A DNA stretch of 64,000 nucleotides from an uncultured Candidatus Saccharibacteria bacterium (GTDB lineage: Bacteria; Patescibacteriota; Minisyncoccia; RBG-13-40-8-A). The stretch covers positions 385,587-449,586 of the forward strand of contig OZ246412.1 in assembly GCA_965231075.1 (NCBI GenBank), given 5' to 3'. Made by a program: the position numbers and the translations under genes. Each line of letters starts with the position of its first letter. Positions within the stretch are counted from its first letter, which is position 1. Of this stretch, positions 9,099 through 31,610 are shown one piece after another. A model generated the notes under the pieces. That model was not told the origin of the DNA. It made no database searches and saw only the letters and a list, made by a program, of their open reading frames with translations.

Positions 9099-10350
9099 GA
9101 TTAAAAAGATTAAAGAATTAGCATATAAATTACTTGTTCGGACTCAAGGCCTTACCGGAACCGACAATGTTTACCTTGCCAAGCAAGGTTCTTGTCTTGT
9201 TATTGGCAACATTATTAATGTTGTTGCCTCTTTTTTGTTAGCAATGGCCTTTGGAAGGTTGTTACCAATAGAGATTTACGGAGATTATCGTTATATTCTT
9301 TCGATAATCATTGTTGTGGGAATTTTTGCCCTACCAGGAATTGACGATGCAATTCTTCAGGCGGTAGCAAATAATTTTGACGGCTCGTTCAAAAAGGGGT
9401 TAAAGGAAAAATTAAAGTGGTCTGTCTTGGGAAGTATCGCGTGTCTAATAATGTCTGGTTATTTTTTCTTTTTTAAAGATAATTTCGACCTAACCATCTC
9501 TCTCATAATCGCCAGTGTATTTTTCCCAGTCCTACAAAGCACAGGATTATATCTTTCATACTTGGGAGGAAAAAAGTTTTTTGGTATTCAAACCACATAT
9601 AATGTGTTAACTCAAATAATTTCTTCTCTTTTTATTATTATAGCATTATTTTTAACAAACAGCCTTATTGTTTTGGTTTTGGTGTATTTTTTATCTTATG
9701 CCGTGCTTGGTGCAACTTTTTTTATTCTCAGCATCAAAAAATTCCCGCCGAATAACAATGTTGATGAAAAATTTATCGGTTTTGGCAAACATCTTAGCTT
9801 GTTTCATATAGTTTCCACTGTCGCTAATCAAATAGATAAAATTTTACTTTTTAATCTTTTGGGCCCAGCACAATTAGCTATTTATAGCTTTGCCTCAATG
9901 CCTACCTCGGAAGCAAATATCTTTCTCAAAAACGTTCGCGCGCTAGCTTTACCAAAATTTTCTACAAAAACCAAAGAAGAAATCAAAAAAACTCTTTTAA
10001 CAAAAATATTCCGTGCTACACTTATAATGGCGTTATTGGTTATCGCCTTTATTCTAATCGCTCCGTTTATCTATAAAATATTGTTTCCACAATATATTGA
10101 CTCAATAAATTATGCGAGACTTCTGTTTTTAATTGTCTTATTTTTCCCATTTTCTCTTATCCCTCTTTATTTTCAAGCACAAATGATGAAAAAGGAGCTT
10201 TATCAATTTGGAATAATTTCCCAAATAATTATTATGACCCTAACAATCGTTCTTGTTCCTGTGTGGGGCGTAATCGGCGCAATAACGGCAAGATTAGCTG
10301 GACAATTTGTCTCTGTAATTCTGTCAATTATACTCTTTAAAAAAAGTTAA
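9097..10350 (+). CDS. MOP-superfamily polysaccharide flippase (Wzx-like polysaccharide biosynthesis protein)
   Basis: About 12 TM helices and a size and organisation typical of Wzx-type O-unit flippases. Confidence 0.55.
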   Translation: MIKKIKELAYKLLVRTQGLTGTDNVYLAKQGSCLVIGNIINVVASFLLAMAFGRLLPIEIYGDYRYILSIIIVVGIFALPGIDDAILQAVANNFDGSFKKGLKEKLKWSVLGSIACLIMSGYFFFFKDNFDLTISLIIASVFFPVLQSTGLYLSYLGGKKFFGIQTTYNVLTQIISSLFIIIALFLTNSLIVLVLVYFLSYAVLGATFFILSIKKFPPNNNVDEKFIGFGKHLSLFHIVSTVANQIDKILLFNLLGPAQLAIYSFASMPTSEANIFLKNVRALALPKFSTKTKEEIKKTLLTKIFRATLIMALLVIAFILIAPFIYKILFPQYIDSINYARLLFLIVLFFPFSLIPLYFQAQMMKKELYQFGIISQIIIMTLTIVLVPVWGVIGAITARLAGQFVSVILSIILFKKS

Positions 10351-11804
10351 GCTTTTTTAATTCTAAGAATAAAATTAATTATCCATCTCTCTGGGACAAG
10401 AGAAAAATAATGTTTTTCCCATCTCCATTTCGCCAGTTTACCGAAAATTTTTGCTAGCCCGAAGAAAAAACCCGAACCATTGGTCTTTTCGATAAAAATA
10501 TAATTAATTAAAAATGCAACATTCATTATAACTCTTTTCTTCTTTCTACTTATCCAGGGCATTCTAACCGTATTAAAATCATAATTCGCCCACTCCTCTA
10601 AGGTTTGTGGTGGTTGCCACCCCTCTCTTATGGCTAAGGCATACAAATCAGTTCCGGGATAAGGAGTAAAAATCCTCCAGGCTGGAATCCTAATCTTTGG
10701 ATCCAGTTTTTTCATTTTGTAGATCAAATCGGTGGTTTTATATAAATCTTCAATTGTCTCGGTTGGAAATCCTGCCATAAAATAATATTTGGAATTTATG
10801 CCCACCGTTTTCAATCTATTTATTGTCTCAAAAACATGATCAAGGGTAATATCTTTATGTATTAAATTTAAAATCTTTTCCGAGCCACTTTCAACACCAA
10901 AAGCCAAAGTTCTAAATCCTGCCCGATAAAGTAATTTTAAATATTTACTATCCATGTTGTTCGCCACATAATTTACCCTACAAGTAGTAAAAATTTCTAC
11001 ATTTAGATTGTTCTCAACAATTAAATTACAGATTTCCCTTGCCCGTTTCACGTCCACAAAAAATTCGTCATCTTCAACGTTGAAAGAATTTATGCCATAT
11101 TTATCAACAAAATACTTTATTTCCCGAAATACGCTTTCTGCAGACTTGCCACGCCATTTTCCTTTATTGAATTCTTTATTATAGCAGAACCCACAACGAT
11201 GTGGACACCCCCTGCTGGTATACAACGCAATATCTCTTGCAGATTTTCCGCTAGCAAAAGATTTTTTTGCAATATAATTCTCAATATCTACCAAATCATA
11301 TGGAACATCAAAAGCTTCGTCTAAATTAATAAAATCTCTCTGTTGAGAAATGATTATTTCGTTATTTTTTTTATAACCAATTCCCTTTATTGAATCTATT
11401 GACGTTTTCCGTTTTAGGGCGTCTATTAACCTCAAAAATGTTTCCTCGCCTTCTCCGATTACAACAAAATCAATATATTGATTTTGCAAGGTTTGCTTTG
11501 GCAACAAGCTAGGATGGACGCCGCCCCAAACTACCGGTATATTGCTGTGTTTTTTTACAAACCCAGACACCTCCAATCCATATAATATTTGTTTTCCTGT
11601 GAGCGCTGAGATGCCAAATGCCACGGGACTGTCTTTAAGGACTTCCATTACAACTTCTTGCCAATTTTTCTCAAGTCTTTGATCAATTATTTTAACGTCA
11701 TACCCATTGTGCGCCAAAGGGGCGGCAACAGACAAAATGCTCATCGGCAAAAGCCCGATAACGCTACTCTCATATTTTGGAAAAAACAATACAATTTTAG
11801 ACAT
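10347..11804 (-). CDS. B12-binding radical SAM enzyme (second paralog)
   Basis: N-terminal B12-binding-like domain, then SRGCPHRCGFC radical-SAM motif. Confidence 0.8.
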   Translation of the reverse strand: MSKIVLFFPKYESSVIGLLPMSILSVAAPLAHNGYDVKIIDQRLEKNWQEVVMEVLKDSPVAFGISALTGKQILYGLEVSGFVKKHSNIPVVWGGVHPSLLPKQTLQNQYIDFVVIGEGEETFLRLIDALKRKTSIDSIKGIGYKKNNEIIISQQRDFINLDEAFDVPYDLVDIENYIAKKSFASGKSARDIALYTSRGCPHRCGFCYNKEFNKGKWRGKSAESVFREIKYFVDKYGINSFNVEDDEFFVDVKRAREICNLIVENNLNVEIFTTCRVNYVANNMDSKYLKLLYRAGFRTLAFGVESGSEKILNLIHKDITLDHVFETINRLKTVGINSKYYFMAGFPTETIEDLYKTTDLIYKMKKLDPKIRIPAWRIFTPYPGTDLYALAIREGWQPPQTLEEWANYDFNTVRMPWISRKKKRVIMNVAFLINYIFIEKTNGSGFFFGLAKIFGKLAKWRWEKHYFSLVPERWIINFILRIKKA

Positions 11805-13017
11805 ATTTTTCGTACCATTTTAATGTTTCTTCGACCTTTTTCTTTAAAGAAAACTTTTCTTTTGCTTGTTCGTATCCAGCTTCTCCGAATTGTCGCATTT
11901 TGATTGGGTTTTGCAATAATTCCCAAGTCCTGTCTTTGATTGCTACAATATTGTTTGGATTTATCAGGTAACCAGTTTGATTGTCTAAAACGACCTCTTT
12001 CGGACCGCCAAAAAAACTACTTATTACCGGTTTCTTGCAAGCCATTGCTTCAAGATTGACAAGATTAAAAGTTTCAAAACATAATGATGGCGAAACAACA
12101 ATATCGGAAGAAAAAATTGCCAATTTTAATTCTTCTTCATCTAGCCAGCCTAAAGAAATTATATTATCGTTTATTTTTAGACTATCTATTTCTTTCTCAA
12201 CGAATTTGTTTGTTCTGTCAATTCCCGCGAACAACAAAACAATATTCTTATCGACGTCTTTTAACAGAGCAATCGTTTCTAAAATTTTAAAAACACCTTT
12301 TTCTATGCTCGGCCTCGCTCCAAAAAATAATACTTTTTTATTTTGTAGGCCGTGCTTTATTTTAAACTTATCAATTTCTGAAAGATTTTCTTTGTATTGG
12401 TCGACATCGATACCGTTATAAATTGTTTCGACATTATTAATTCCATTTAAAATCAAAAGCTCCTTTAGGGAGTCACTAACCGCAAATATTTTATCGACGC
12501 ATTTTAAATATTTTTTAATAAAAACATCTCTAAAGGGATTAAAACGTTTTTTTGCCGATTTTAATTTTTGCCAAAAGGTTATTTTATAAACATCTTTTCC
12601 GTTTCTGGGCATCAATTTTCCGTAATTAATCGACATTACGTCATGAGCGGTTAAAAAAACCGCCTTAGAATATTTTTTTGCTATTTTAAGGGACCTATAA
12701 GAAAGGTGATAATGAATATTGTGTGCATGTACAATGTCTGGATTAATCTTTTTAATTATTTTCTCTACCTTTGTGATTGTTTGCGGATTGATTAATCCTT
12801 TCCACGATCGCCATCTTTCGTGATAACAAGAATAAATTTTAAAGATTTTTAAGCAGCCCAAATCACTCTCCCTTTCTTCGCTTTTTATTCTTGTTGCAGT
12901 AATTATAAAAACCTCATGATTCGTTTTTTGAAGCTCTCGGGCTAAGTTATATACCACGATTCCAGCGCCACCACAAGAATTGGGCGGGAAATCATCATTT
13001 AATAAAACTATTTTCAT
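11797..13017 (-). CDS. GT4-family glycosyltransferase (glycosyl transferase group 1)
   Basis: N-terminal GT-B half (MKIVLLNDDFPPNSCGGAG) and C-terminal E..AMACKKPVISS motif. Confidence 0.8.
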   Translation of the reverse strand: MKIVLLNDDFPPNSCGGAGIVVYNLARELQKTNHEVFIITATRIKSEERESDLGCLKIFKIYSCYHERWRSWKGLINPQTITKVEKIIKKINPDIVHAHNIHYHLSYRSLKIAKKYSKAVFLTAHDVMSINYGKLMPRNGKDVYKITFWQKLKSAKKRFNPFRDVFIKKYLKCVDKIFAVSDSLKELLILNGINNVETIYNGIDVDQYKENLSEIDKFKIKHGLQNKKVLFFGARPSIEKGVFKILETIALLKDVDKNIVLLFAGIDRTNKFVEKEIDSLKINDNIISLGWLDEEELKLAIFSSDIVVSPSLCFETFNLVNLEAMACKKPVISSFFGGPKEVVLDNQTGYLINPNNIVAIKDRTWELLQNPIKMRQFGEAGYEQAKEKFSLKKKVEETLKWYEKYV

Positions 13018-13777
13018 TGTTCTTTATAGCTTCACTATTAGTTAAATATTTTATATTTTCTCGATTGGCTATGTGTCCAAAAATTTCTTCAACCTTATTC
13101 CATAAATTATGTTTTTCAATTTCCCAGGAATGTCCATATAGATGAAAAACTCCGCCATTTTTTAAAACACAACCAAACACATTCTTAACGAGCCTTTTCC
13201 AACCAAAGATTGAGTTTATAGGAAGCTTGAGCTTAATCACCCCTCTCAACACCCTAAATGCCCTGTATATTAAAACTTTAAATTTATATCTTAAACTCCA
13301 ATTTTTGGGCATAGAAAAAATTGGCCCCAAACAAACAGAAACCCCCATCAAAAAAGAATCCGTTATGTTGATCTGAAATAATTTAGTTGTTCTGGCACCA
13401 ATAAATCCTGATTGCTTAATTATTTTTATTGATTCCGACGTACATACTCCGCCGGGAAAGGCAAACACTTGTATCGATTCTTGAATTAAACTTTCTAACC
13501 ATTGTTTGGATCCGATTATCTCTTCTTCAACAGATCTTTGCGCTTTGTTTAAATAAACGTGAGTTAGTGTATGGGCGCCTATTTCTTGGGTTCTAGCAAT
13601 ATCGACTATTTCTTGTTCTGAAAGCAATTTAAGATGTTCGAATTTTTCTACTTCTAATTCAATTTTCTTAGGAATATAAAAAGTTCCCCTTAGGTTGTGT
13701 TTGTTTAAATATTCTAAAATTTTTAAATCTTCTTTTGCGCCATCATCCCAGCTGGTTGTAACAATAATTTTTTTCAT
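12995..13777 (-). CDS. Polysaccharide deacetylase (CE4/NodB homology)
   Basis: TTSWDDG (motif 1, TFDDG-like) and HTLTH (motif 2). Confidence 0.7.
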   Translation of the reverse strand: MKKIIVTTSWDDGAKEDLKILEYLNKHNLRGTFYIPKKIELEVEKFEHLKLLSEQEIVDIARTQEIGAHTLTHVYLNKAQRSVEEEIIGSKQWLESLIQESIQVFAFPGGVCTSESIKIIKQSGFIGARTTKLFQINITDSFLMGVSVCLGPIFSMPKNWSLRYKFKVLIYRAFRVLRGVIKLKLPINSIFGWKRLVKNVFGCVLKNGGVFHLYGHSWEIEKHNLWNKVEEIFGHIANRENIKYLTNSEAIKNNENSFIK

Positions 13778-14385
13778 TTTTGAGCAATTAAATAAACATT
13801 ACTATATACAATTTCACTTTTTGAAAATCTATCTAAAAAAGAAAAAAATTTTTGAACTTTTTCCATCAATCTTCTTTTAAAGATACTATGTTCTTTATAT
13901 GGGTTTAAAAACATAAATTTAAACCATTCTGCGAAAACTGTAAATGTTCGTCCATAAGAATCTATTTCAATAATTTTGAATCCTTGATTTTCAAACAAAA
14001 ATTTTAATCCGTTTACAGTATAACGAAAGTAATCATCTGGATCAGAATGTGAAGGAATTAAAAACGGTGCGGTTAAAACGCAAACCCCCTTCTCCTTTAA
14101 AACTCTGTAAATCTGCCAAACAACAAGTTGCGGATTCTTAACATGTTCTAACATTTGAGTACAAATTATTGTATCAAATTCTTCATTTTCAAATGGCAAA
14201 TCAGCGGCGTCACATACAATATCAATATTTTTACTATAAATTATGTCTGTCGCTATATATTTTTTAGATTTTTTAGTTATTATTGATTTATACTTTCCCT
14301 CGCCAGCTCCCAAGTCTAAAGTTTTTCCAGAAATATAGTTGAGGGAATAAGTAATTACATCTACTGTTTTATTAAATTTTTTCAT
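13774..14385 (-). CDS. Class I SAM-dependent methyltransferase (type 11)
   Basis: LDLGAGEGKY SAM-binding motif and ICTQMLEHV. I placed the start at the internal Met (MKKFNK) to remove the 74-nt overlap with the upstream methyltransferase; the ORF-track start is 14445. Confidence 0.7.
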   Translation of the reverse strand: MKKFNKTVDVITYSLNYISGKTLDLGAGEGKYKSIITKKSKKYIATDIIYSKNIDIVCDAADLPFENEEFDTIICTQMLEHVKNPQLVVWQIYRVLKEKGVCVLTAPFLIPSHSDPDDYFRYTVNGLKFLFENQGFKIIEIDSYGRTFTVFAEWFKFMFLNPYKEHSIFKRRLMEKVQKFFSFLDRFSKSEIVYSNVYLIAQK

Positions 14386-15028: not shown

Positions 15029-16108
15029 TTATTTATAGAAGCTTAGATATTTTTTAATTACGTTGTCCCAGCTCATTTTTTGCGCAAAAATCCTTCCCTC
15101 TTTCCCCATTCCCCGAGCTAAGCCTGAATCATCTAATAGTTTTAAAATAAATTTAGAGGTTGCATTAATGTCGTTCGGAGAAACCAAAAATCCCGTTTTA
15201 TTATTTATAATTGCATCTTCTGCGCCACAATTATAAGTGCCAATGACGGGTTTCCCGCAAGCTCCTGCCTCTAAATACGCCAAACCAAATCCTTCAAAAT
15301 CATTATCATTGATCGTAACTGGCACTAATAAAAATATGTCTGACTGATAATACAATTTAATTAATTCCTCGTCAGATAAATTTTCCAGAAATTCGATATT
15401 TTTTTCTAGCTTCAAGTTTTTTACTAAATCAGAATATATTTTTGGTGGCCTACCGCCAACTATATAGTATTTTATATTGGGATATCTTTTTTTTATTTTA
15501 ACAATCGCCGGTATTGATATGTGGTAACCCTTTCTAGGCTTTAATGCGCCAACACTTAAAATTATTTTTTTAGAACCATTGCCCTCTAACGCGATTACTT
15601 TTTGAAATTTATCATAATCGACACCGAGACTTATAACGTCAATATTGTCTAGCTTAATTCTCTTTAATATTTGGTCTTTGGTAAAATTACTAATACATAA
15701 AATCTTATAAACTCTTTTATATGCCCATTTCGTTAAAATTTTTATTATCGATTTATCCAGCGGTAAAATAGTGTATGTCCCCACGCCCGTGATAATTACT
15801 CTTTTTTTAAGACCAATAACGGTCAAGGCCGCTATCACCCCGTAAGGATAACCGTCTAAAGCATGAATAATATCGCAAGTTTTCACATATTTTCTTGCTC
15901 TAAAAGCGTTTATAAAAATATTTAAAATGTGATTTAAACCGAGCGATTTTTTTAAAATAGGCTTTGCGAGATCGCTATGATCATCTACTTCAGTTAAAAC
16001 AACTAATTCTATCTCTTTGTCTTTTTTAAGAGAATTAATTAATTCCAGGGCGAACCTTCCTTCGCCTCTTTTTTCGTCTAAAGTTTTAGCTAAAAAGCAG
16101 ACTTTCAT
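15029..16108 (-). CDS. GT4-family glycosyltransferase
   Basis: EGFGLAYLEAGACGKPVIGT C-terminal GT4 motif. Confidence 0.8.
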   Translation of the reverse strand: MKVCFLAKTLDEKRGEGRFALELINSLKKDKEIELVVLTEVDDHSDLAKPILKKSLGLNHILNIFINAFRARKYVKTCDIIHALDGYPYGVIAALTVIGLKKRVIITGVGTYTILPLDKSIIKILTKWAYKRVYKILCISNFTKDQILKRIKLDNIDVISLGVDYDKFQKVIALEGNGSKKIILSVGALKPRKGYHISIPAIVKIKKRYPNIKYYIVGGRPPKIYSDLVKNLKLEKNIEFLENLSDEELIKLYYQSDIFLLVPVTINDNDFEGFGLAYLEAGACGKPVIGTYNCGAEDAIINNKTGFLVSPNDINATSKFILKLLDDSGLARGMGKEGRIFAQKMSWDNVIKKYLSFYK

Positions 16109-17514: not shown

Positions 17515-19268
17515 ATTAGATTTAAATTGTAACTTTTTTTATCAACATGGTCAATGAACATTCTCTGAATTCCATCGAAATTAAAATACTTTCTGTTGTC
17601 CGAAAAATACTCAGGAGACAAAATTTGTTTGGCTTTTTGATTAAGGCCTTCTCTCAACCATTGCGATGCTGGAGTCATCCAAACTTTTTTCTTGTCTGAA
17701 CTTAAAATATGTTCTGGTAAATATTTTTCCATTGCTTTAATAAAAATTGTCTTGCCTTGGTTTCTGTTAAGCATCTTGTATTTGTTGGGAATTTTTGCAG
17801 ACAGTTCTACTAATTGGTGGTCCAGAATTGGAACTCTTTCCTCTAATCCCATCGCCATCGTCATCTTATCAGAACGCATTAATGATTCGTCTGGTAACCA
17901 CGTTTTAAGATCGGCCAACATAAATTGATTTGTAAATTCTGTTCTCGGGCTTAATTTAAAATATTTTTTCTTAAATAATTTTAAAGTGTTTTTTGTTGAG
18001 TTTATATTTTTGTTTAAAATTTTCCCAAGTTCTTTTTCCTTCTGCGACATAAATTTCAAATAAACCCTGGTTTTCAAAAACGGAAAAAATCTTATAAATT
18101 TATATTTATCCAAAAAATAACCATAATAATATCTTTTGTATCCCCCAAATAATTCATCTCCGCCATCTCCACCCAAAACAACCGCCACCTCTTTTTTTGC
18201 ATATTCCGCCAAAAGCATGGTTGCAATTTGTGTTGGTTCTGCCACGGGTTCGTCCATATGATAAACAATTTTTTCCAAATTATTCAAAATATCTTCACTT
18301 TTAATTATAAGTTCGTGATGCTCGGTATTATAAAGCTTACTTGTTTCTCTGGCCAGTTTTAAATCAGCGTTAAATTTATTGTTTGGATCATTAATATTAA
18401 ACCCGACAGAGAACGTTTTAATTTTAGCATTAGTTAGTTCTTTCGCAATCCCCAAAACACTCGTAGAATCAATTCCCCCGCTTAAAAATACCCCCACCGG
18501 TCTGTCAGAAATAAGTTGTCCTTGAACTGATTTTTTCATTAAATTCTGAATTTTTCCAATAATTTCTTGTTCTGATTCAATCCTTTTTGTATCTGTAACG
18601 TCCCAATATTTATAAGTTTTTGGTTCGAAGTTCGGAGTTCGAAGTGAGGCCCTGAGATAATGTGCCTGTGGAAGCTTAAAAACGCCCTTAAACATCGTTA
18701 ATGGGGCTGGGACGTACATAAGTCGGAAATAATGGTTAAACGCTTCTGGGTCAATTTCTCGCTTAATATCGTGCTCTAAAATTGCTTTAATCTCTGATGA
18801 AAAAATGAACTTGTTGTCATCATTGTAATAATATAATGGTTTCACTCCGACTCTATCTCGTGCTAAAAATAATTCCTTGTTTTTAATATCATAAATTGCG
18901 AACGCAAAAATTCCATTCAATAGTTCTAAACACTTTTCTTTTTTTTCTTCGTATAAGTGTAACACAACCTCCGTATCCGTTTGAGAAATAAATTTATGAC
19001 CATTTTTTTCTAAATCTTTTTTTAGTTCTTGAAAATTATAAATTTCCCCATTAAAAATGATGCACAAACTTTTGTCTTCGTTAAAAAGTGGTTGTTTGCC
19101 GTTTTCAGACAAATCAATAATCGACAATCTTCTGTGCCCCAGGGAAATATTTTCATCAATATAAAAACCTTCTCCATCGGGCCCACGATGCTTTATTTTC
19201 TCATTCATTTTCCGAATTAATGTCCTGCTGTCGTTATTATAATTTATGAAACCGTTTATTCCGCACAT
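17460..19268 (-). CDS. asnB: Asparagine synthase (glutamine-hydrolysing) family amidotransferase
   Basis: N-terminal MCGI nucleophile Cys (class II glutamine amidotransferase), a SGGIDS PP-loop and overall AsnB-like length. Confidence 0.85.
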   Translation of the reverse strand: MCGINGFINYNNDSRTLIRKMNEKIKHRGPDGEGFYIDENISLGHRRLSIIDLSENGKQPLFNEDKSLCIIFNGEIYNFQELKKDLEKNGHKFISQTDTEVVLHLYEEKKEKCLELLNGIFAFAIYDIKNKELFLARDRVGVKPLYYYNDDNKFIFSSEIKAILEHDIKREIDPEAFNHYFRLMYVPAPLTMFKGVFKLPQAHYLRASLRTPNFEPKTYKYWDVTDTKRIESEQEIIGKIQNLMKKSVQGQLISDRPVGVFLSGGIDSTSVLGIAKELTNAKIKTFSVGFNINDPNNKFNADLKLARETSKLYNTEHHELIIKSEDILNNLEKIVYHMDEPVAEPTQIATMLLAEYAKKEVAVVLGGDGGDELFGGYKRYYYGYFLDKYKFIRFFPFLKTRVYLKFMSQKEKELGKILNKNINSTKNTLKLFKKKYFKLSPRTEFTNQFMLADLKTWLPDESLMRSDKMTMAMGLEERVPILDHQLVELSAKIPNKYKMLNRNQGKTIFIKAMEKYLPEHILSSDKKKVWMTPASQWLREGLNQKAKQILSPEYFSDNRKYFNFDGIQRMFIDHVDKKSYNLNLIWALIVFQVWCKKYLLDT

Positions 19269-20410
19269 ATAAATTCAATGATTTTTTTAGCTCGATTGTC
19301 CCACGTGTATTGCTGAACATCTTTATATGCTTGTTCCGATATTGATTTTAATAACTCTGTGTCGTTTAGTGCTTTTTTAATGCTAACTGCCATTGCTTCC
19401 GGATTATCTGATTCGACAAGAATAGAATTTTCGTTATTCAAAATCTCTTTAAACGAGGGAAGATTAGAAGCCACGATCGGATTGCCCGAAGCCATATATT
19501 CAAACATTTTCATTGGCGAAGTATGTTCTTTGGATGTTTCTGAGTTCGTGGTTCCAGTTAAAACTAGGCAATCGGCTGACTTTAAATAGGCAGGAATCAA
19601 AGAATAATCCTTGTGACCCAAAACCAGAACATTTCCCAAATTATTTTTTTCAACAAATTTTTTGAAATTAGATAGATACCATTTAATCCCGCCAACAATA
19701 ACAATTAAAACATTGTCTTCTAAGAATTTTGACGCCATTGCTAGCGTTTCCACGCCCTTCCACTTATATAAATGTCCCGCATAAAGAGCAATTTTTTTAT
19801 TCTGTGGTAATCCTAATTTTTCTCGACACCCCTCTTTGTCCGCAACAACATTAAAATCGTCTAAGTCAATTGCGTCTCCGGCAATCATAATTTTATTTTC
19901 TTTAACTCCCCTCTTCGCCAAATCTTTTTTCAGCCCATCAGTAATAACAATAATTTTTTGAACTCTATTTAGTATAAATTTAAATAAACTCTTGTGAAGT
20001 TGATGCGCCTCTAAAACAATATTGCGTTTAAATAAACAAAGGAAGAATAAACTAAACCTGTCTCGAGAATAAATAATATCTGCTTTTCTGAACAGAGTAT
20101 AAAAAAATGTCGAAATTGCAAAAGAGATTGCTTGAATTAAAAACGAAACTGGCCCCAGATATTTGTTTAGAGGGGTCAAATCGATACAAAATATCTTTTT
20201 GATCTTGAAACTTTTATCAACTCTATAGTATTCAAACGGATCTTTTTTTGATAGTTCAGATATGCCAAATCGTCTTGGAACAATAAGTTCCACCTCCAAC
20301 TTCGAACCTCTAACCTCTATCTCAGAAAACGCTCCGCACATCTTCATTATCTGAAGTCCATGTGCCATTTCGGTCGGTATTCTGATGTTGGCAATATAAA
20401 GTATTTTCAT
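19256..20410 (-). CDS. GT4-family glycosyltransferase
   Basis: C-terminal EYMASGNPIVASNLPS motif. Confidence 0.75.
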   Translation of the reverse strand: MKILYIANIRIPTEMAHGLQIMKMCGAFSEIEVRGSKLEVELIVPRRFGISELSKKDPFEYYRVDKSFKIKKIFCIDLTPLNKYLGPVSFLIQAISFAISTFFYTLFRKADIIYSRDRFSLFFLCLFKRNIVLEAHQLHKSLFKFILNRVQKIIVITDGLKKDLAKRGVKENKIMIAGDAIDLDDFNVVADKEGCREKLGLPQNKKIALYAGHLYKWKGVETLAMASKFLEDNVLIVIVGGIKWYLSNFKKFVEKNNLGNVLVLGHKDYSLIPAYLKSADCLVLTGTTNSETSKEHTSPMKMFEYMASGNPIVASNLPSFKEILNNENSILVESDNPEAMAVSIKKALNDTELLKSISEQAYKDVQQYTWDNRAKKIIEFICAE

Positions 20411-21831
20411 TATTTCTTTAAATAATTAATTCCGGTCTTAATTAATTCCTTTAATTCTCCAACTGATTTGGTTTTTCTTAATTTATTGAATCCCTTTTTA
20501 ATTATATTTCCTCTTATTCCTAATTCTTTGGTCATAATTGCTTTGATCTTTTCTAATTCTGCGCCCGGCCATTCCATATAGAATAAAGACGGATCAGTGC
20601 CGGCAACTTTGTATTTTGGCGATTGATAGGGGCTATTCCAAGAAAAATCTTTCGGCATTAAGCCCTTTTCTTTGGCCATTAATTCTAGTTCTGTTCCCGG
20701 ATAAATAACCGTAAACCCATAAGCAGGATAAGAATTTTTGATTTTGTTTAATTCTTTTATCACATTAATAGTTTGCTTTAAATCGTCGATTGTTTCTTCG
20801 GGTAAATTAACCATAAAATTCGTAACCACCTTCATCCCGATTTCTGAGGACCAACTTACCGCATTCATCACCTGTTCAATGGTGATGTTTTTCTTGATGA
20901 TTTTTAGAATCCTCGGACTACCCGATTCAACCCCAAAACTAATTCTTATACATCCCGCCTTTTTCATTAGTTCCAATAATTCTTTATCAACTGTATTTAC
21001 TCTCGCTCGTGCATACCAAACAATATTTAGATTTCTTTTAATGATTTCGTTACAAATTGCAATCGCGTGATCCCTAACCATGGTGAGAGTATCGTCCCAA
21101 AAATCAAAACCTTTATATCCGTAAGTTTTGTGTAAAAATTCCACTTCATCAATAAACTTTTTAGGATCCATTAATCTCAATCCGCTTCGAGAATTTGCAC
21201 AGTAGACACAATTATTAGGACATCCCCTGGCACTCATTACTCCCACAGAGCGAGTGTTTGTTCCGTCAATTGGCTTATTGTATAGTTTTAAATCAAATAA
21301 ATGCCAGGCTGGCGCGGGTAGGTCGTTAAGATTTTCGATTAAATCAAAATTTGGTCTTTCAATAATTTCATTTTTTTGATTTCTATAAACCAATCCCGAC
21401 ACATTGTTAAAATCGCCTTTGGATTCCAAAATATCCAAAAATTTTACAATCGCTTTTTCGGCTTCGCCTTTTATAATACAATCTATCTCTGGAACTAATT
21501 CTAAGGCATTTTTTGCAGTTAATGAAAAATGTGGTCCTCCCATTAAAACAATAACATTTTTGTTTCTTTTCTTAATTTCTTTGGCCAACTCAATTGCCTT
21601 AAAACGATTATCGGTAATTGCGTGTACACCAATTACGTCGGGCCTTTTCTCTAATATCTTTTCTGCGGTTTGTGAGGCATTAAACCCATAAGTGTGCGCA
21701 TCAAAAATCTCAACTCGATGGTGACTAAATTTTTCGACATACCCAGCAATATAACCGATGCCCAAAAACGGCACGCCCACTCTTTCTAGGTCGCCTTCGG
21801 CTCGAGGTGATGTTGTAAGTATTAGTTTCAT
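20410..21831 (-). CDS. B12-binding radical SAM enzyme (third paralog)
   Basis: N-terminal B12-binding-like domain, then SARGCPNNCVYC. Confidence 0.8.
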   Translation of the reverse strand: MKLILTTSPRAEGDLERVGVPFLGIGYIAGYVEKFSHHRVEIFDAHTYGFNASQTAEKILEKRPDVIGVHAITDNRFKAIELAKEIKKRNKNVIVLMGGPHFSLTAKNALELVPEIDCIIKGEAEKAIVKFLDILESKGDFNNVSGLVYRNQKNEIIERPNFDLIENLNDLPAPAWHLFDLKLYNKPIDGTNTRSVGVMSARGCPNNCVYCANSRSGLRLMDPKKFIDEVEFLHKTYGYKGFDFWDDTLTMVRDHAIAICNEIIKRNLNIVWYARARVNTVDKELLELMKKAGCIRISFGVESGSPRILKIIKKNITIEQVMNAVSWSSEIGMKVVTNFMVNLPEETIDDLKQTINVIKELNKIKNSYPAYGFTVIYPGTELELMAKEKGLMPKDFSWNSPYQSPKYKVAGTDPSLFYMEWPGAELEKIKAIMTKELGIRGNIIKKGFNKLRKTKSVGELKELIKTGINYLKK

Positions 21832-22973
21832 TTAAATAATTCTATAAACTTGTTGATGACATTATCAATTGAATATTCTCTAATCTTCTCTAATTCTTCT
21901 TTTTGAAAAGTCTCATAGGTTTCTGGTTCCGATAAAAGCGACTCTATTTTGTGTGCGAACAATTCTACATCCCCAGATTTGATTAAAAATCTCTGTGCCG
22001 TTTCTGGCGATATTTCTCTCACAGCACCAACATCAGAGGCAACATACGGAACGCCCATTGCCATTGCCTCAAGCAAAACTCGAGGAAATCCTTCTTCCAT
22101 TGATGGCATGATAAAAAGATCTGCTTGATTATAATAATCAATGATTTTTTCATTGGGAACAGCACCAACGACTTCGATATAATTTTCTAAATTATTTTCT
22201 TTTATTTCTTTTAATAATTGTTCCTTGTATGGACCATTGCCGACAACGATAAGTTTAAAGTTAGAAGTTAGATGTTCGAAGTTAATTAAATGTTTTGTAA
22301 TTGGAATAAGCATGTCAGCACCCTTTCTCTTTGAGAGCCAGTGGACAAAAAGAATGTTATAAGTTCGAGATTCGTGGCTTGAAGTTTCAGATTCTTCTAA
22401 CTTTGAACCTCGAGCTTTGAACCTATTTAAATTTATCCAATTTGGCATTACTTTTACGTTTTCTGGTTTTAAATTGTAATGTTCAACATATCCCTGTTTC
22501 ATTGTTTCTCCGCCGGTCACCAAATAATGCGAAAGTCTTAAACTTAATTTGTATCCTATTTTAGAAATATCTTTTTTCTTAAATAACCAATTCATTGCAC
22601 AGTTCCAATAATAAGATCTTCCCTTAAAAATTCTTGAAACGATTCCTGCATTCACTGCTCCGATGTAGGCATAGTGCGTATAAAAAAGATTATAACCTCT
22701 TTTTCTGGCTCTTAAAATCAGCTTCAAATTTTCCAAAATACGAAATGGAATGAACTTAAATTTCTGCACATATGTTTCGGGAATTTTAACCTTAATCGCT
22801 TCAATGTCTTCTTTTTTCCCTCTTTCAATAATCAGAAAAATATCAACTTTTTCCGAAAGTTTTTCTAGAAATTCATAGATATGATAAAAATGACTATCAG
22901 TGTTTTGATTATATTCAGGAAGTATGTAGCAAATACGTTTTTTAGTTTTTGGTTCGAGGTTCGAAGAACTCAT
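21828..22973 (-). CDS. GT4-family glycosyltransferase
   Basis: EGFPRVLLEAMAMGVPYVASDVGAVREI. The first codons (MSSSNLEPKT) are encoded by the GTTCGAR repeat. The start codon overlaps the stop of the upstream gene (ATGA). Confidence 0.75.
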   Translation of the reverse strand: MSSSNLEPKTKKRICYILPEYNQNTDSHFYHIYEFLEKLSEKVDIFLIIERGKKEDIEAIKVKIPETYVQKFKFIPFRILENLKLILRARKRGYNLFYTHYAYIGAVNAGIVSRIFKGRSYYWNCAMNWLFKKKDISKIGYKLSLRLSHYLVTGGETMKQGYVEHYNLKPENVKVMPNWINLNRFKARGSKLEESETSSHESRTYNILFVHWLSKRKGADMLIPITKHLINFEHLTSNFKLIVVGNGPYKEQLLKEIKENNLENYIEVVGAVPNEKIIDYYNQADLFIMPSMEEGFPRVLLEAMAMGVPYVASDVGAVREISPETAQRFLIKSGDVELFAHKIESLLSEPETYETFQKEELEKIREYSIDNVINKFIELFK

Positions 22974-23329
22974 TGTCGTAAATATTTTTTAAGACTTAAT
23001 AATTTAATAAAAATTTTATCTATTTTGTTATTACTCGACTCTATTTCGTTAGAAGAAATATATTTCAAATTCAATGCTATCTTTAGTGCCGTCTTAACCT
23101 CTACGAGGGAACCCAACGATATATCAACGAAACGAGCAAAATCCTTCTTAGTTTTTATGCTTCCTTCTGCGATATTTAATGCGACCGAAATAACTGCTCT
23201 TTTTATTTGTGCGCCCAACACAAACATCTCTTCTTTGGGAAATGTCCTAGTCAAACTATAAACATCTTCAATTAAACTCATAGACAATTGATATACTTCT
23301 AGTTTTTCAAAATTATATTCTTGAGTCAT
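22970..23329 (-). CDS. Four-helix-bundle protein (23S rRNA intervening-sequence protein family; DGR Avd-like fold)
   Basis: Family signature ...LEVYQLSMSLIEDVYSLTRTFPKEE...LGAQIKRAVISVALNIAEGS.... It is flanked by inverted GTTCGAR repeat copies. Confidence 0.7.
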   Translation of the reverse strand: MTQEYNFEKLEVYQLSMSLIEDVYSLTRTFPKEEMFVLGAQIKRAVISVALNIAEGSIKTKKDFARFVDISLGSLVEVKTALKIALNLKYISSNEIESSNNKIDKIFIKLLSLKKYLRQ

Positions 23330-23343
23330 GATCTTATTTTTTT

Positions 23344-25584
23344 TTAATTATCAGAATCAGAACTGCGAACATCGAACTTCGAACTTATCAACCGTTGATA
23401 AGTTAATGCATAATTTTCTATTGCTTTTTTACGTTCAAATTGTTGAACGGTTTGATAGCCATTTTCAGCAATTTTATTTCTTAAATTGTCGTCCTTTAAT
23501 AATAACATTATTTTATTGACAATATCTTCAATTTTCCAATCAACGAAAATACCATTTTCCATGTCCTTAATGATATCGTTCATTATTCCGACCCTACTCG
23601 TTAAAACTGGAATTTTACACGCCATTGCTTCAAGTGTTACCCTGGGACCACCCTCATTGAAAGATAGCATCGCCATCAATCTTGATTGATTATAAATACC
23701 AGCAACATCATTGGTGGTCGGCAACCATCCAGAAAATTCTATGTTGTTTTGTAGGTTATTTTTCTTGATAAATTTTTCTATCTTTGGTTTTAATGGTCCA
23801 TCACCCACGATAATAAGTTTAGGGTTCAGGGTTTTCAATTTAGAATTTGCTATTGCGCGTAGCAATAGAAATATCCCCTTGTTTTTTACTAATCTTCCAG
23901 AAAAAACAATATCATATTTTTTCTCTAAATTAATCGGCTTAAAAATATCTAGATCAATATAGAAAGCGGGAACATACTTTATCTTTTCCTTGTCAATTTT
24001 GAATTTAATTAAAAATTCTGGGACCTGATTTTGATTAATAACCCTAACTGCTCTCGCGTTTTTGGTAAATTTCTTAATAAATATTTTAGTTAAAATTTTG
24101 TAAAACCATTCCTTGCAATTGCCTGCTTTTGGATAGCCGGTTATGTGCATAATTTCTAAAAGATAGGGAGTTTTTATCTTTTTATGCAACCATAAGCCAC
24201 CAACATCATTATAAAATGGCGGATAGGAGTGAATTGTAAATAAATCAAATTTTTGTTGTTTAAAAATTTCTGTTCCTTTTTTTAATACAAACCAGGGTTG
24301 CAAAATTAACGGCAAATTTGACGAATGAATAAACACGTTCCCGAAAATATTATCGATTTTTTGTTCTGTTCGTGGACAAATTATATCAATTCTCTCCCAG
24401 CTTTTTGAAAATTCCTCCAACATATAATAAAATGGCCCATGTTTACCACCTGCCAACGCCCTATCTCCAGTTATCATAAGTAATTTTCGGCCCGAGGCCG
24501 ACCCGCCCTGGGCGGGCATCAACGCTTTAATAGTTTCGTTGATCATTCTTTTTAATTCGAATTGTTTTAATTTTTTATACCCATTTTCAATAAATTTCTT
24601 CCTCAAGTCTTCATCTTTCCATAATCTTAAAATAGCATTCTTTAATTGCTCTTTGTCGTTATATCTCACCAGTAAACCATTAAATTCATTTTCTATTACT
24701 TCCGGATTGCCACAAACACTAGTAGTAATTATTGGCAAACCGCAGGCCATTGCCTCTAAAAGTAAATGTGATAAACCTTCGTATCCCGTGTTTAAGACAA
24801 AAATATCACCACCCTTAAAACGAGCCATTAATTCTTTGTGAGGCATTTTCGTTTCAATAATCAATCTAAAATTTGGGTTTTCTTTTAATAGGTCTGGTAG
24901 AATTTCTTTAAGTGTATCGAAACCCTTCCATGGTTCCGGTCTGCCTGCGGAAATAATTACATCACCTTCTAACTTTTCTGGTGCAACATCTTCTACCCCT
25001 CGAAACGCGTTATAAATGACGATTATTTTATCGGCGTTAATCCCCCACCCAACCACTATTTTCTTTAAATATTCACTAGGAACAATCACTTTGCCAGCAC
25101 TACCAACAACTTTTTTTTGAATTTTTCTTCTTAATTCAGTTTTCCAATCATATTTTTTATTCTGAAACTCGTCAATAAGGTCAATTGTTTCTTGTTTCTT
25201 GTTTCTTGTTTCTTCGTTCTGGTACTGTTCCCATGCGTAATCACCTACAATTTTAATTATAAATTTCTTCTTTAAAATTTTAGAAATTAACATCGCTGGT
25301 AGACCAGCTGACAATGGTCCTTGAGCATAAATAATGTCTGCGTTTTTTGCTAATTTAAACAAATTCTTGAAATAATTAAGATATCGTTTTAATGTATTTT
25401 GTTTTCGCAATATTCTAATTATTCTAAATTTCTCATATTTATCATTTTCCTCGTATTTATCGCCATAACAAATTAAATCAACCTCAATTCCTTGATCGCT
25501 AAATTCCCTCGCAATTAACTGCGAGTATGTTGCCGGTCCACCGCTATCCGGTGGATATATTCCTGATGCAATTACAATTTTCAT
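23344..25584 (-). CDS. Fused tandem GT4 glycosyltransferase (two complete GT-B units)
   Basis: Two C-terminal-type GT4 motifs (LLEAMACGLPIITTS and LEAMACKIPVLTSRVG) plus two N-terminal halves (MKIVIASGIYPPDSGG and a PAQGGSASGRKLLMITGD region). Confidence 0.75.
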   Translation of the reverse strand: MKIVIASGIYPPDSGGPATYSQLIAREFSDQGIEVDLICYGDKYEENDKYEKFRIIRILRKQNTLKRYLNYFKNLFKLAKNADIIYAQGPLSAGLPAMLISKILKKKFIIKIVGDYAWEQYQNEETRNKKQETIDLIDEFQNKKYDWKTELRRKIQKKVVGSAGKVIVPSEYLKKIVVGWGINADKIIVIYNAFRGVEDVAPEKLEGDVIISAGRPEPWKGFDTLKEILPDLLKENPNFRLIIETKMPHKELMARFKGGDIFVLNTGYEGLSHLLLEAMACGLPIITTSVCGNPEVIENEFNGLLVRYNDKEQLKNAILRLWKDEDLRKKFIENGYKKLKQFELKRMINETIKALMPAQGGSASGRKLLMITGDRALAGGKHGPFYYMLEEFSKSWERIDIICPRTEQKIDNIFGNVFIHSSNLPLILQPWFVLKKGTEIFKQQKFDLFTIHSYPPFYNDVGGLWLHKKIKTPYLLEIMHITGYPKAGNCKEWFYKILTKIFIKKFTKNARAVRVINQNQVPEFLIKFKIDKEKIKYVPAFYIDLDIFKPINLEKKYDIVFSGRLVKNKGIFLLLRAIANSKLKTLNPKLIIVGDGPLKPKIEKFIKKNNLQNNIEFSGWLPTTNDVAGIYNQSRLMAMLSFNEGGPRVTLEAMACKIPVLTSRVGIMNDIIKDMENGIFVDWKIEDIVNKIMLLLKDDNLRNKIAENGYQTVQQFERKKAIENYALTYQRLISSKFDVRSSDSDN

Positions 25585-27258: not shown

Positions 27259-28222
27259 TTATAAAATTGGGCAACAAAATAAACAGATTTCTTACTCTCG
27301 AAGAACGTAGTTTTTCGGGATTTTTTTCTTTTTTCAAAATGATTATCGGATATTCTTTGCCTCCCCATCCAGATTTAAACGTGAAAAGAGATGAATTTTT
27401 GGGAGTTGCTCCAAGGTCCAAGATAATATCTTGGCCGACTAAGCTTTCTATCTTATTCCAAAGAATGAGATAATTTGCCCCCAGGTTCTTATGTTTTTGA
27501 TCAGAGGCACTTAAAAAATAGTGCACAAAACCTGAATATTCTACAAATAGGCTACCTCCCACGATTTTATCCCTATCAAAGACCAATAAAAGCTCGCTAG
27601 GCGCATTTTTATAGAGAAACTGAATCAGTAACCAGGGATACGGAATTGTCTTTTTGCGCCTTAAATTTGCAACATATAAATTGTAAAACTTTTTTAACTC
27701 TTTTAGATTCTCACATTTTCTAACCACTAAATTTTGGTCTTGGGCGTGTTTAATTTCGTGTCTCAACGTCTTTCTAAAAGAATCCCAAATTTCTTGTGCT
27801 GATTTATTTTTAAAATTCTCAAGCCAATGGGTTGTTAGGTTCGAAGTTCGAGGTTCGAGGTTGTGAGTTATGGGTTCGAGGTTTGAAATTTGAAGTATTT
27901 GTGGGTGAAATTTTACTTTAATTCTCTCGCCAAATTCCTTAAAGACATCTTTTTCAAATTCTTGTAAATTGATTTCGCCGTTTAAAATTAACGGTCCTCC
28001 ATATTCACAGAACGGCAATGAAATAATTTTCTCTTTGTTGAAAATTCTAAATTTAGCTATCGGAAATATTATTTCGGACCCATATAAATAATATTCGAAA
28101 AAAATCCATCTAAACTGTTTCTCTAAAAATTCATGCCAATCGGCATTATGAAAAAAGGTGCTAAATTTTGTTCTATTAAATAATTCTCTATACTGATTTC
28201 TGGTTATTTTTGTAAAATTCAT
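27218..28222 (-). CDS. FemAB/BioF2-like GNAT-fold acyl/aminoacyl transferase (candidate sugar N-acyl or aminoacyl modifier)
   Basis: Weak resemblance to the FemAB / Acetyltransf_6 family; contains a long in-frame GTTCGAR repeat insertion. Start placed at the internal Met (MNFTKITRNQ) rather than the ORF-track start 28255; either way it overlaps the next gene. Confidence 0.35.
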   Translation of the reverse strand: MNFTKITRNQYRELFNRTKFSTFFHNADWHEFLEKQFRWIFFEYYLYGSEIIFPIAKFRIFNKEKIISLPFCEYGGPLILNGEINLQEFEKDVFKEFGERIKVKFHPQILQISNLEPITHNLEPRTSNLTTHWLENFKNKSAQEIWDSFRKTLRHEIKHAQDQNLVVRKCENLKELKKFYNLYVANLRRKKTIPYPWLLIQFLYKNAPSELLLVFDRDKIVGGSLFVEYSGFVHYFLSASDQKHKNLGANYLILWNKIESLVGQDIILDLGATPKNSSLFTFKSGWGGKEYPIIILKKEKNPEKLRSSRVRNLFILLPNFIIKLLSPILLKYRI

Positions 28223-31443: not shown

Positions 31444-31490
31444 AATTTTCAATTTTGAATTTTCAATTTTCAATGAATTTTCAATTATTT
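31444..31490 (-). repeat. Tandem octamer repeat (TTGAAAAT)x~5 immediately 5' of the start codon
   Basis: Minus strand reads ttgaaaattcattgaaaattgaaaattcaaaattgaaaattATG; no SD sequence. Confidence 0.6.
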
Positions 31491-31526
31491 AATTTTTAAT
31501 ACTAATTATATTTTAGCACAAATAAA

Positions 31527-31560
31527 AGAAAAGCGCCTCACCGAAGTGAAGCGCTTTTCA
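31527..31560 (-). terminator. Rho-independent terminator downstream of the 1221-aa surface-protein gene
   Basis: 13-bp stem (one G-U wobble on the minus-strand transcript), UUCG tetraloop, followed by CUUUUAUUU. Confidence 0.7.
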
Positions 31561-31610
31561 GTTTATCCTATGTCACCATCTACAAGGAAGATGTCATAGG
31601 TCGAAATCGA

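Follow-up and report, generated by a model that had tools for sequence, protein, structure and literature searches.

A probable intervening-sequence-type cassette with inverted heptamer arrays between two glycosyltransferase genes of an uncultured Saccharibacteria bacterium

The four-helix-bundle gene and the surrounding insert

The DNA analysed here is a stretch of 64,000 nucleotides (the window) from contig OZ246412.1 of an uncultured Candidatus Saccharibacteria bacterium (assembly GCA_965231075.1, positions 385,587 to 449,586). At 22970..23329 it contains a small gene for a four-helix-bundle protein of 119 amino acids (aa), which lies on the minus strand, as do all genes and arrays of this region described below. 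The gene is located between two genes for glycosyltransferases (GTs) of the GT4 type, a 746-aa tandem GT4 upstream (23344..25584) and a 381-aa GT4 downstream (21828..22973). The ATG of the 381-aa GT4 overlaps the TGA stop of the small gene (ATGA). An earlier prediction made from the letters of the window had described this arrangement, and we could confirm it.

The encoded protein scored 106.2 bits against PF05635 (cut-off 33.8) and 99.8 bits against TIGR02436 (“four helix bundle protein”, cut-off 24). Its nearest solved relative is the Xanthomonas protein XCC0516 (PDB 2gsc, E = 2e-21). In the motif G/QxxRxxxSxxxNIAEG, the residues Q41, R44, S48, N52, A54, E55 and G56 are invariant or nearly so in the family alignment. 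Judged by its sequence, the assignment of the protein to PF05635 / TIGR02436, the family of the 23S rRNA intervening sequence (IVS) protein S23p, is unambiguous. The original prediction had used the joint label Avd / 23S-IVS. The second half of this label stands, but identity with the Avd proteins of diversity-generating retroelements (DGRs) was rejected, as the scores against NF033474 (31, cut-off 80) and PF22296 (29.9, cut-off 40) stay below both cut-offs. A crude test found no reverse transcriptase (RT)-type YxDD motif among the open reading frames (ORFs) of the 64 kb, in agreement with the predicted solo copy without RT, and no pair of template and variable repeats was seen. An Rfam scan yielded no rRNA and no Rfam family, either in the window as a whole or at the gene.

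Alignment of the DNA with the empty junctions of two relatives, L002 and L089, delimits an insert of ~454 nt (22938..23391) that consists of a 5' arm, a spacer, the ORF and a 3' arm. The host sequence on either side reads ...TATCAACGG up to 23392 and CGTATTTGCTACAT from 22937. The 5' arm (23360..23391) is an array of GTT-type heptamers, (GTTGATA)(AGTTCGA)(AGTTCGA)(TGTTCGC)(AGTTCTG) in the sense direction, for which Tandem Repeats Finder reports a period of 7 and 3.9 copies. It codes for a new C-terminal tail of the tandem GT4, SSKFDVRSS.. (the tail SSKFDVRSSDSDN, followed by the stop). The TAA stop itself (23344..23346) also lies within insert DNA, and an A-rich spacer of 14 nt (23330..23343) leads from there to the ATG of the small gene. 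The 3' arm (22938..22969) is an AAC-type array, (GAGTTCT)(TCGAACC)(TCGAACC)(AAAAACT) in the sense direction, and gives the 381-aa GT4 its new N-terminus, SSSNLEPKTKK. The ATG that opens this N-terminus (22971..22973) is absent from the orthologs, in which the aligned start lies ~10 codons later. The four-helix-bundle gene is the only ORF inside the insert, and no transposase is encoded.

The left flank of the gene (22951-22966, ggttcgaggttcgaag) and the right flank (23360-23386, gaactgcgaacatcgaacttcgaactt) pair as an inverted repeat of 13 nt that is 92% complementary, with the two copies 407 nt apart. Terminal inverted repeats, as in MITEs (miniature transposable elements with inverted repeats) and other transposable elements, are thus present. 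These are the inverted heptamer flanks that had been predicted, and it is also correct that the right copy codes for the tail of the upstream protein and the left copy for MSSSNLEPKT. The orientation of the heptamers rests on few bases, because the unit consists of a palindrome, TTCGAA, and one further base, but the degenerate outer units ATGTTCG and CAGTTCT do settle it. A perfect palindrome of 11+11 nt, AACTTATCAAC g GTTGATAAGTT (23382..23404, no strand), spans the left boundary of the insert. Host coding sequence makes up its outer half, and the first unit of the 5' arm its inner half. The outermost (TTAGGGA)-like units of a similar insert in L002 also line up with host codons. These two observations hint that host sequence resembling the arms either seeds them or is targeted by them.

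Empty sites and rebuilt gene ends

L002 is a metagenome-assembled genome (MAG) of the Patescibacteria that is syntenic with the window at 65-75% aa identity. A comparison with related genomes had been proposed as a check for an empty site, and in both L002 and L089 the two GT4 genes indeed overlap directly, by 38-44 nt, with neither a four-helix-bundle gene nor arrays between them. The L002 ortholog of the second half of the tandem GT4 ends in ...YQTLLHTS before its stop, and the downstream GT4 opens with MQNNIKLCYILPDY, its ATG lying 38 nt inside the upstream gene. The overlap in L089 is 44 nt, with the downstream start MQKPIKICYILP; the upstream GT of this locus is 64% identical to residues 367-735 of the tandem GT4 of the window. 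When 60 orthologs of the downstream GT4 were aligned, nearly all N-termini followed the pattern M[QR]KxIK[IL]CYILP, and MSSSNLEPKT occurred in the window protein only. Likewise, the upstream tail described above is not present in relatives. The opposite case, in which relatives have the same termini but no gene, was not found, since the termini differ in the relatives.

The unique N-terminus among the 60 orthologs and the empty sites therefore point to an insertion of ~454 nt in the lineage of the window. It went into the overlap of 38-44 nt between the two GT4 genes, abolished both the old downstream start and the old upstream end, and replaced them with insert-encoded sequence. This agrees with the predicted element that is bounded by inverted repeats and rebuilt the gene termini. 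Both GT4 frames stay open because the 5' arm is read through to the stop within the insert, and because translation from the new ATG passes through the 3' arm and joins the old frame. A dead ATG CAT TAA (23403..23411) still marks the ancestral start of the downstream GT4; the homologous ATG opens MQ(N/K).IK.CYILP in L002 and L089.

Gains and losses in related genomes

The comparison of the window with L002 yielded four filled/empty junctions in one syntenic cluster, and each time the extra DNA consists of an array, a gene and a second array. L002 has three small extra genes at junctions that in the window are tight overlaps: one PF05635 gene between radical SAM and GT genes (13590-13970), a second PF05635 gene between GT and asparagine synthase genes (15381-15758), and a PF13366 PDDEXK_3 (“GxxExxY”) gene between GT4 and radical SAM genes (11664-12059). 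Each has its own matched inverted pair of arms, namely (TTAGGGA)n and its complement, (CAATTTT)n/(AAAATTG)n, and TATCCGAATCTACAAAT-type/ATTCGTTGATTCGGATA-type units, respectively. Here too the arms are translated. The (TTAGGGA)n array provides the tail and the stop of the radical SAM gene, and the arm of the PDDEXK_3 gene adds ILSESTN and a stop to the GT4. Behind the second four-helix-bundle gene, L002 also contains a 45-nt tandem repeat in three copies (15755-15900), each with a AAAATTGATAATTG arm motif. The prediction had proposed to look for other copies of the gene between the same inverted repeats. Inverted arrays do bracket other family members, but the GTTCGAR unit is not cassette-specific, and other units are used even within one genome, such as TTAGGGA and CAATTTT in L002.

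The closest relative, L088 (78% aa identity), shares the PDDEXK_3 cassette of L002. Including the arms, the two copies (L002 11500-12125 and L088 1140-1760) are 83% identical at the nucleotide level, compared with 75% for the flanking GT4; the window is without this cassette and has a clean ATGA junction. This means that the cassette is under stronger constraint, that it was recently transferred to the same site, or that the window has lost it precisely. The contig of L088 ends inside a ATTCGTAGATTCGAAT-type arm (positions 1-35), 35 nt upstream of the GT4 start, and therefore the junction occupied in the window holds a different cassette in L088. Arms of the ATTCGTAGATTCGAAT kind break short-read assemblies, and many homologs are found on contigs of 1-2 kb. 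A cassette between GT2 and GT4 genes was found once more in another organism (P0011).

Arms also occur without cargo. The GT4 linker of L088 contains a clean cargo-less pair, (AAGTTCA)(AAGTTCG)(AAGTTGA) - AATTT - (AACCTCG)x3. In L002, a cargo-less pair of the PDDEXK_3 type (TATCCGAATCTACAAAT / ATTCGTTGATTCGGATA, 9160-9250) splits the tandem GT4 into two ORFs by providing ILSESTN with a stop and a new ATG, whereas the two halves are fused in the window via a different linker (ALMPAQGGSASGR). The loci L090 (70-1659) and L091 (266-1462) have identical arms at the same spot of the GT4 linker and differ in cargo. At the apex, L090 carries a PDDEXK_3 ORF of 381 nt in-frame, which results in a predicted fusion ORF of 529 aa, and L091 carries only CAT. 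The translated motif RR.TQIESRQVGNTQINAE.QRESAY...RVSA recurs (L002 14088-14225 and the P0145 linker) and marks cargo-less arm pairs of the PDDEXK_3 type, which sit in-frame in different glycosyltransferases of different genomes.

With the empty junction of L089, these comparisons show that relatives gain and lose such cassettes within this cluster, both between genes and in surface loops. Mobility, as read from the aligned genomes, is seen as gain or loss between genomes only.

Survey of the PF05635 family

We examined 80 metagenome loci with relatives of the window protein (37-56% identity), plus L002 and L086. Near-duplicates were removed for the statistics on arm structure and units and kept for the pairing scores. 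As a pairing score we used the local alignment of the 120-nt upstream flank with the reverse complement of the downstream flank. For the 75 genes with enough flanking sequence, the mean score was 28.7 in the inverted orientation, 18.6 in the direct orientation and 15.0 for shuffled sequences, and inverted pairing reached p <= 0.01 in 67% of the genes. A score of at least 26 was obtained for 57% of the family genes and for 2.7% of 148 neighbouring genes that served as controls (control mean 16.0; Mann-Whitney p = 1e-18). Three of the four control outliers are PF05635 or PF13366 genes themselves. An array of at least three units lies beside the gene in 46 of 47 family loci, compared with 12.6% of the control genes.

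Among 41 non-redundant elements, the period of the arms is 7 in 24, 8 in 12 and 9 in one, with a median arm length of 27 nt. On either strand, the 5'-terminal arm contains little C (6%). The trinucleotide GTT is contained in 47 of 63 consensus units (75%), with the consensus GTT[G/A/C][A/T][T/G][G/A], so that GTTCGAA in the window is typical. The surveyed loci range from 32 to 69% GC. The genes are co-oriented with their neighbours in 73-79% of cases, a value compared with the general expectation and not with a computed baseline. Such values look ordinary for adjacent bacterial genes, so that nothing points to RNA-mediated insertion.

An independent set was provided by annotated plasmids of cultured cyanobacteria, in which five of eight copies have inverted heptamer arrays. 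In Nostoc edaphicum, a (GGGAGTA)n/(TCCCTAC)n cassette lies between the genes for the beta and alpha subunits of ribonucleotide reductase (RNR); the copy of Anabaena sp. 90 is located between cas6 and cas4 and that of Picosynechococcus between cmr2 and cmr3. The copies with direct arrays are L098 (Pseudanabaena galeata plasmid pPg_01, 580-1170) and L097 (Nostoc PCC 7120 gamma). They show (AAAGCTA)x14 upstream and (AAAGCCA)n downstream, an arrangement that a stem model does not explain.

The kind of arm seems to depend on the gene enclosed. L079 contains one cassette of each family, 1.4 kb apart; the PF05635 gene has (GGTTATT)n/(AATAACC)n arms and the PF13366 gene has arms of the CACAGAT-type/ATCTGTG-type. 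PDDEXK_3 genes have units of 9-10 nt, in which the upstream arm shows a CACAGA, CACGGA or CCGAAT core and the downstream arm its complement, a pattern found in Bacteroides finegoldii (in the gap between radA and the gene for an FAD protein), Bernardetia, Treponema and loci of the candidate phyla radiation (CPR); two other PDDEXK_3 genes have direct repeats. In this small sample, arm type follows cargo: PF05635 genes go with GTT-core 7-8-mers and PF13366 genes with CACAGA- or CCGAAT-type 9-10-mers. The window copy is a weak single example of a strong general pattern.

Further arrays in the window

With at most one mismatch, the double heptamer GTTCGARGTTCGAR occurs nine times in the window, compared with 0.05 expected occurrences, and all nine lie at 18.6-27.9 kb. 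Tandem Repeats Finder and a looser search together gave seven GTTCGAR-family arrays within 11 kb, including those at 22946-22966 and 23360-23386; none was found in the rest of the 64 kb beyond the glycosylation cluster. The family thus consists of dispersed tandem arrays of a 7-nt unit, like the short tandemly repeated repetitive (STRR) sequences. All arrays lie in coding sequences of this one cluster (asparagine synthase, GT, radical SAM, GT4, tandem GT4, DegT and FemAB-like genes). The unit is therefore not private to the cassette, as five further arrays lie inside neighbouring genes.

The linker between the domains of the 381-aa GT4 holds a cargo-less inverted pair in-frame (22352..22425). 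It folds with -19.3 kcal/mol (z = -3.5) and is a degenerate homolog of the intact pair in L088. The same gene contains a solo AAC-type array (22258..22290, ..NFEHLTSNFKL..). A solo GTT-type array in the 384-aa GT (20292..20320, EVRGSKLEVE) lies in a loop where L002 has a different insert of 138 nt, and another solo array is found in the asparagine synthase gene (AsnB, 18623..18645, LRTPNFEP). The FemAB-like gene contains an AAC-type array of ~9 units (27833..27894, SNLEPITHNLEPRTSNL). Compared with the L002 orthologs, several array sites correspond to extra residues in-frame: the 381-aa GT4 is longer by 7 aa at its N-terminus, the tandem GT4 by 10 aa at its C-terminus, and the FemAB-like protein has 11 additional aa. 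The variable loop of the 384-aa GT and the inter-domain linker of the 381-aa GT4 are further differences that match arrays. L002 has its own short-repeat inserts with other units, at the same and at other places. The odd termini of the two GT4 genes and the low-complexity loops of their neighbours would thus be due to the insert and its array kin.

Two arrays with other units were noted. A perfect (GAAACAA)x4.3 at 25185-25214, given in the sense direction, lies in the coding sequence of the tandem GT4 and yields EETRNKKQET. As it is perfect, slippage is likelier here than at any other array of the window, and the array may be a frameshift switch. At 31444-31500, ~8 units of TTGAAAA are located immediately 5' of the ATG of a gene that ends at 30091 (MRKLLLII...). 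This array is a solo array in the 5' leader and follows a terminator-like hairpin at ~31535-31565; its unit is the complement of the L002 cassette arm AATTTTC. Unrelated to the cassette, the window also contains a type IV pilus / pseudopilin cluster (44700-55750) with several small ORFs that have prepilin N-termini of the GFTLIELLV type, beside ORFs that we take to be the assembly ATPase and platform genes. Such clusters are typical of Patescibacteria.

Interpretation and alternative explanations

We consider it probable that 22938-23391 is an IVS-type cassette, that is, a PF05635 gene between inverted tandem-repeat arrays, inserted in a protein-coding operon. The arms would pair in the transcript, and possibly in single-stranded DNA, to form a stem that closes off the ORF, a role that can be likened to that of the stem in rRNA intervening sequences, where it is cut by RNase III. 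In both the minimum free energy and the centroid fold of the element RNA, a stem between the arms does close the ORF. Terminal inverted repeats able to enclose an S23p ORF, as in an IVS, are therefore present, weak in the window and strong in most relatives. The encoded protein may recognise the repeated units of its own arms, because each protein family appears to co-evolve with arms of a particular kind. The solo arrays and the pairs without cargo in neighbouring genes would be derivatives or relics of such elements, surviving only where an in-frame insert is tolerated.

Several results weigh against this interpretation. The inverted pairing of the 120-nt flanks in the window is modest (score 21, p = 0.02 compared with shuffled sequences), in keeping with the weak arms, and the fold energy of the whole element is not better than that of shuffled sequences (z = -0.98). 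Among the arm mismatches, 38 are compatible with G:U pairing and 32 are of the A:C kind, without an excess on the sense strand, so that this test gives no support to pairing as RNA, nor does it exclude it. An RNase III cut in the stem would also cut through the coding sequences on both sides, an awkward outcome for the host. As five solo GTTCGAR sites lie nearby, it may partly be a coincidence that two of them flank a gene. No target-site duplication could be read against the empty sites, which at 65-78% identity are too diverged; a possible AACG on both sides is the only candidate. There is one copy of the cargo within the 64 kb, and a second sample (L001), being 100% identical across the 12.4 kb compared, gives no information on polymorphism. 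At the level of the family, the metagenome loci were chosen by similarity to one protein and include a few near-duplicates, about a third of the members have no significant inverted repeat, and of the eight cyanobacterial copies two have direct arrays and one has none. The predicted view that the family rides on its own small element is borne out as regards arrays around its members and their gain and loss, but neither a mechanism nor a target duplication nor a second copy of the cargo was found.

The arrays could also be STRR-like repeats that were generated by slippage where extra residues are tolerated, with an independent gene and no cassette at all. Neighbouring coding sequences without a four-helix-bundle gene contain at least five other arrays of this unit, orphan heptamers are known from Xanthomonas, Nostoc, Geobacter and Beggiatoaceae, and the pairing in the window is short (13 nt) and the unit nearly palindromic. 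Slippage would however not account for empty sites that are without the gene and the arrays together, for the frequency of adjacent arrays and of inverted pairing in the family compared with the control genes, or for three L002 cassettes that each have their own matched arms. We thus regard this explanation as unlikely. The related idea that the cassette is an illusion, made up of two of many dispersed arrays, was dropped after the matched arms in L002 and the controlled survey of 75 loci. It is very improbable that the arrays are phase-variation switches of glycosyltransferase frames in a surface-glycan cluster, with the four-helix-bundle gene incidental. In favour of a switch are a unit length that three does not divide, the location of the arrays in GT and cell-wall genes, and the perfect (GAAACAA) array in the tandem GT4; the GTTCGAR arrays, however, are imperfect (80-89% match, 3-4 units), differ from orthologs by in-frame indels and are identical in the second sample, and the same build surrounds family members in operons not related to the surface (RNR, cas).

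Inverted repeats can promote precise deletion, and the PDDEXK_3 cassette of L002 and L088 that is missing from the window at the ATGA junction may be such a loss. One could thus imagine that the four-helix-bundle gene is ancestral at its junction and that L002, L089 and further relatives lost it by a precise deletion. Such a deletion would need to re-create overlapping frames exactly, with an ATG embedded in the upstream gene. The window moreover keeps the dead relic of the start, and the canonical N-terminus is found in nearly all of the 60 aligned orthologs, while no other ortholog shares the extension of the window protein, which makes this course of events very unlikely. Finally, PF05635 is distantly homologous to Avd, so that the gene might be the accessory gene of a decayed DGR; with scores below both Avd cut-offs, no RT-like motif, no repeat pair and XCC0516, not bAvd, as the best PDB match, we attach next to no probability to this origin. 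An inserted IVS-type cassette remains our preferred reading of the locus.

We would go further only tentatively. PF05635 and PF13366 proteins may be the dedicated partners of a large unrecognised class of miniature mobile cassettes with inverted arrays of 7-10-nt units, which the proteins would recognise with one unit per oligomer subunit and which would invade rRNA helices, operon junctions and, in-frame, coding sequences. Orphan heptamer repeats, such as STRR and the GGGAATC pairs of Xanthomonas, could then be cargo-less derivatives of this class. Most of the value lies in the general pattern beyond the window copy. Few unexplained small genes are as common in bacterial genomes as those of the S23p and GxxExxY families, and their positions wedged in unrelated operons invite wrong guilt-by-association labels such as “cas-associated”. 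Tandem heptamer repeats are a puzzle of their own. If both gene families and the heptamers belonged to one kind of element, a 23S IVS generalised to any transcript, the distribution of the genes and the origin of the repeats would be explicable. It would also be a source of in-frame insertions and of split and fused genes in CPR glycosylation clusters.

Comparison with known elements

ORF-bearing intervening sequences of 23S rRNA with terminal inverted repeats have long been suspected to be selfish or mobile (PMC4990558). In the IVS of Coxiella, terminal inverted repeats form a stem of 28 bp that is cut by RNase III, and tandem heptamers (GACAGAT) lie directly 5' of the S23p ORF (PMC4990558). 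The 23S rRNA IVSs of the Leptospira, Coxiella, Brucella and Xanthomonas type resemble the window cassette in the S23p family, in a size of ~430-450 nt and in stem-forming ends around the ORF, and the heptamers directly upstream of the Coxiella ORF are a further likeness. An IVS is, however, located inside helix 9, 25 or 45 of 23S rRNA, whereas the cassette lies between two GT4 coding sequences, overlaps both of these protein genes and has translated arms. Excision by RNase III has been demonstrated for rRNA IVSs. We did not find the regularity of the cassette arms, tandem GTT-core heptamers, described.

Genes annotated as 23S_rRNA_IVP have been reported wedged into cas loci, e.g. cmr2|cmr3 and cas6|cas4 (PMC3936711), and family genes are carried by insertion sequences in CPR rRNA (bioRxiv 10.1101/2024.02.27.582315). 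The cas-locus genes are members of the same family between unrelated genes, and we recovered them again in the cyanobacterial plasmids. Both studies see in the gene a potential functional partner of its neighbours, without any mention of flanking inverted arrays, whereas the flanks are the constant feature here. In the literature searched, we found no paper that links PF05635 genes outside rRNA to inverted tandem arrays, nor one that connects IVSs, the genes wedged into other loci and orphan heptamers; an earlier description may exist.

Orphan heptamers include GGGAATC in Xanthomonas, with 70-75 convergent pairs, and further heptamers in Nostoc (PMC4692102), GGACCGG in Geobacter (PMC2700814) and TAACTGA in Beggiatoaceae (PMC4679880). 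Like the arms, these repeats and the cyanobacterial STRR / GGGGA(T/C)T have a period of 7 and 3-6 units, lie between or within genes and often form convergent pairs. The cargo-less L002 pair (CCCCAAT)n even has the unit of the Nostoc heptamer repeat. Orphan heptamers have been described without an associated gene or a proposed origin; here such arrays are the ends of a gene cassette.

MITEs and their autonomous parents, as well as REPINs (hairpins of repetitive extragenic palindromic sequences) and their RAYTs (PMC3116915), likewise occur in cargo-bearing and cargo-less forms that share termini, as do L090 and L091 or the window cassette and the linker pair. Unlike these elements, the cassette encodes neither a transposase nor a RAYT, and its termini are arrays whose unit varies between copies in one genome. 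Neither a transposase nor several near-identical copies, as expected of a transposable element, are found within the 64 kb. Rickettsia palindromic elements are also short hairpin repeats that are inserted in-frame and translated; they are single palindromic units of 100-150 nt without tandem substructure or cargo gene. The element described here is thus a member of the PF05635 family that is built like a 23S IVS but lies outside rRNA, and hence is not an IVS in the strict sense.

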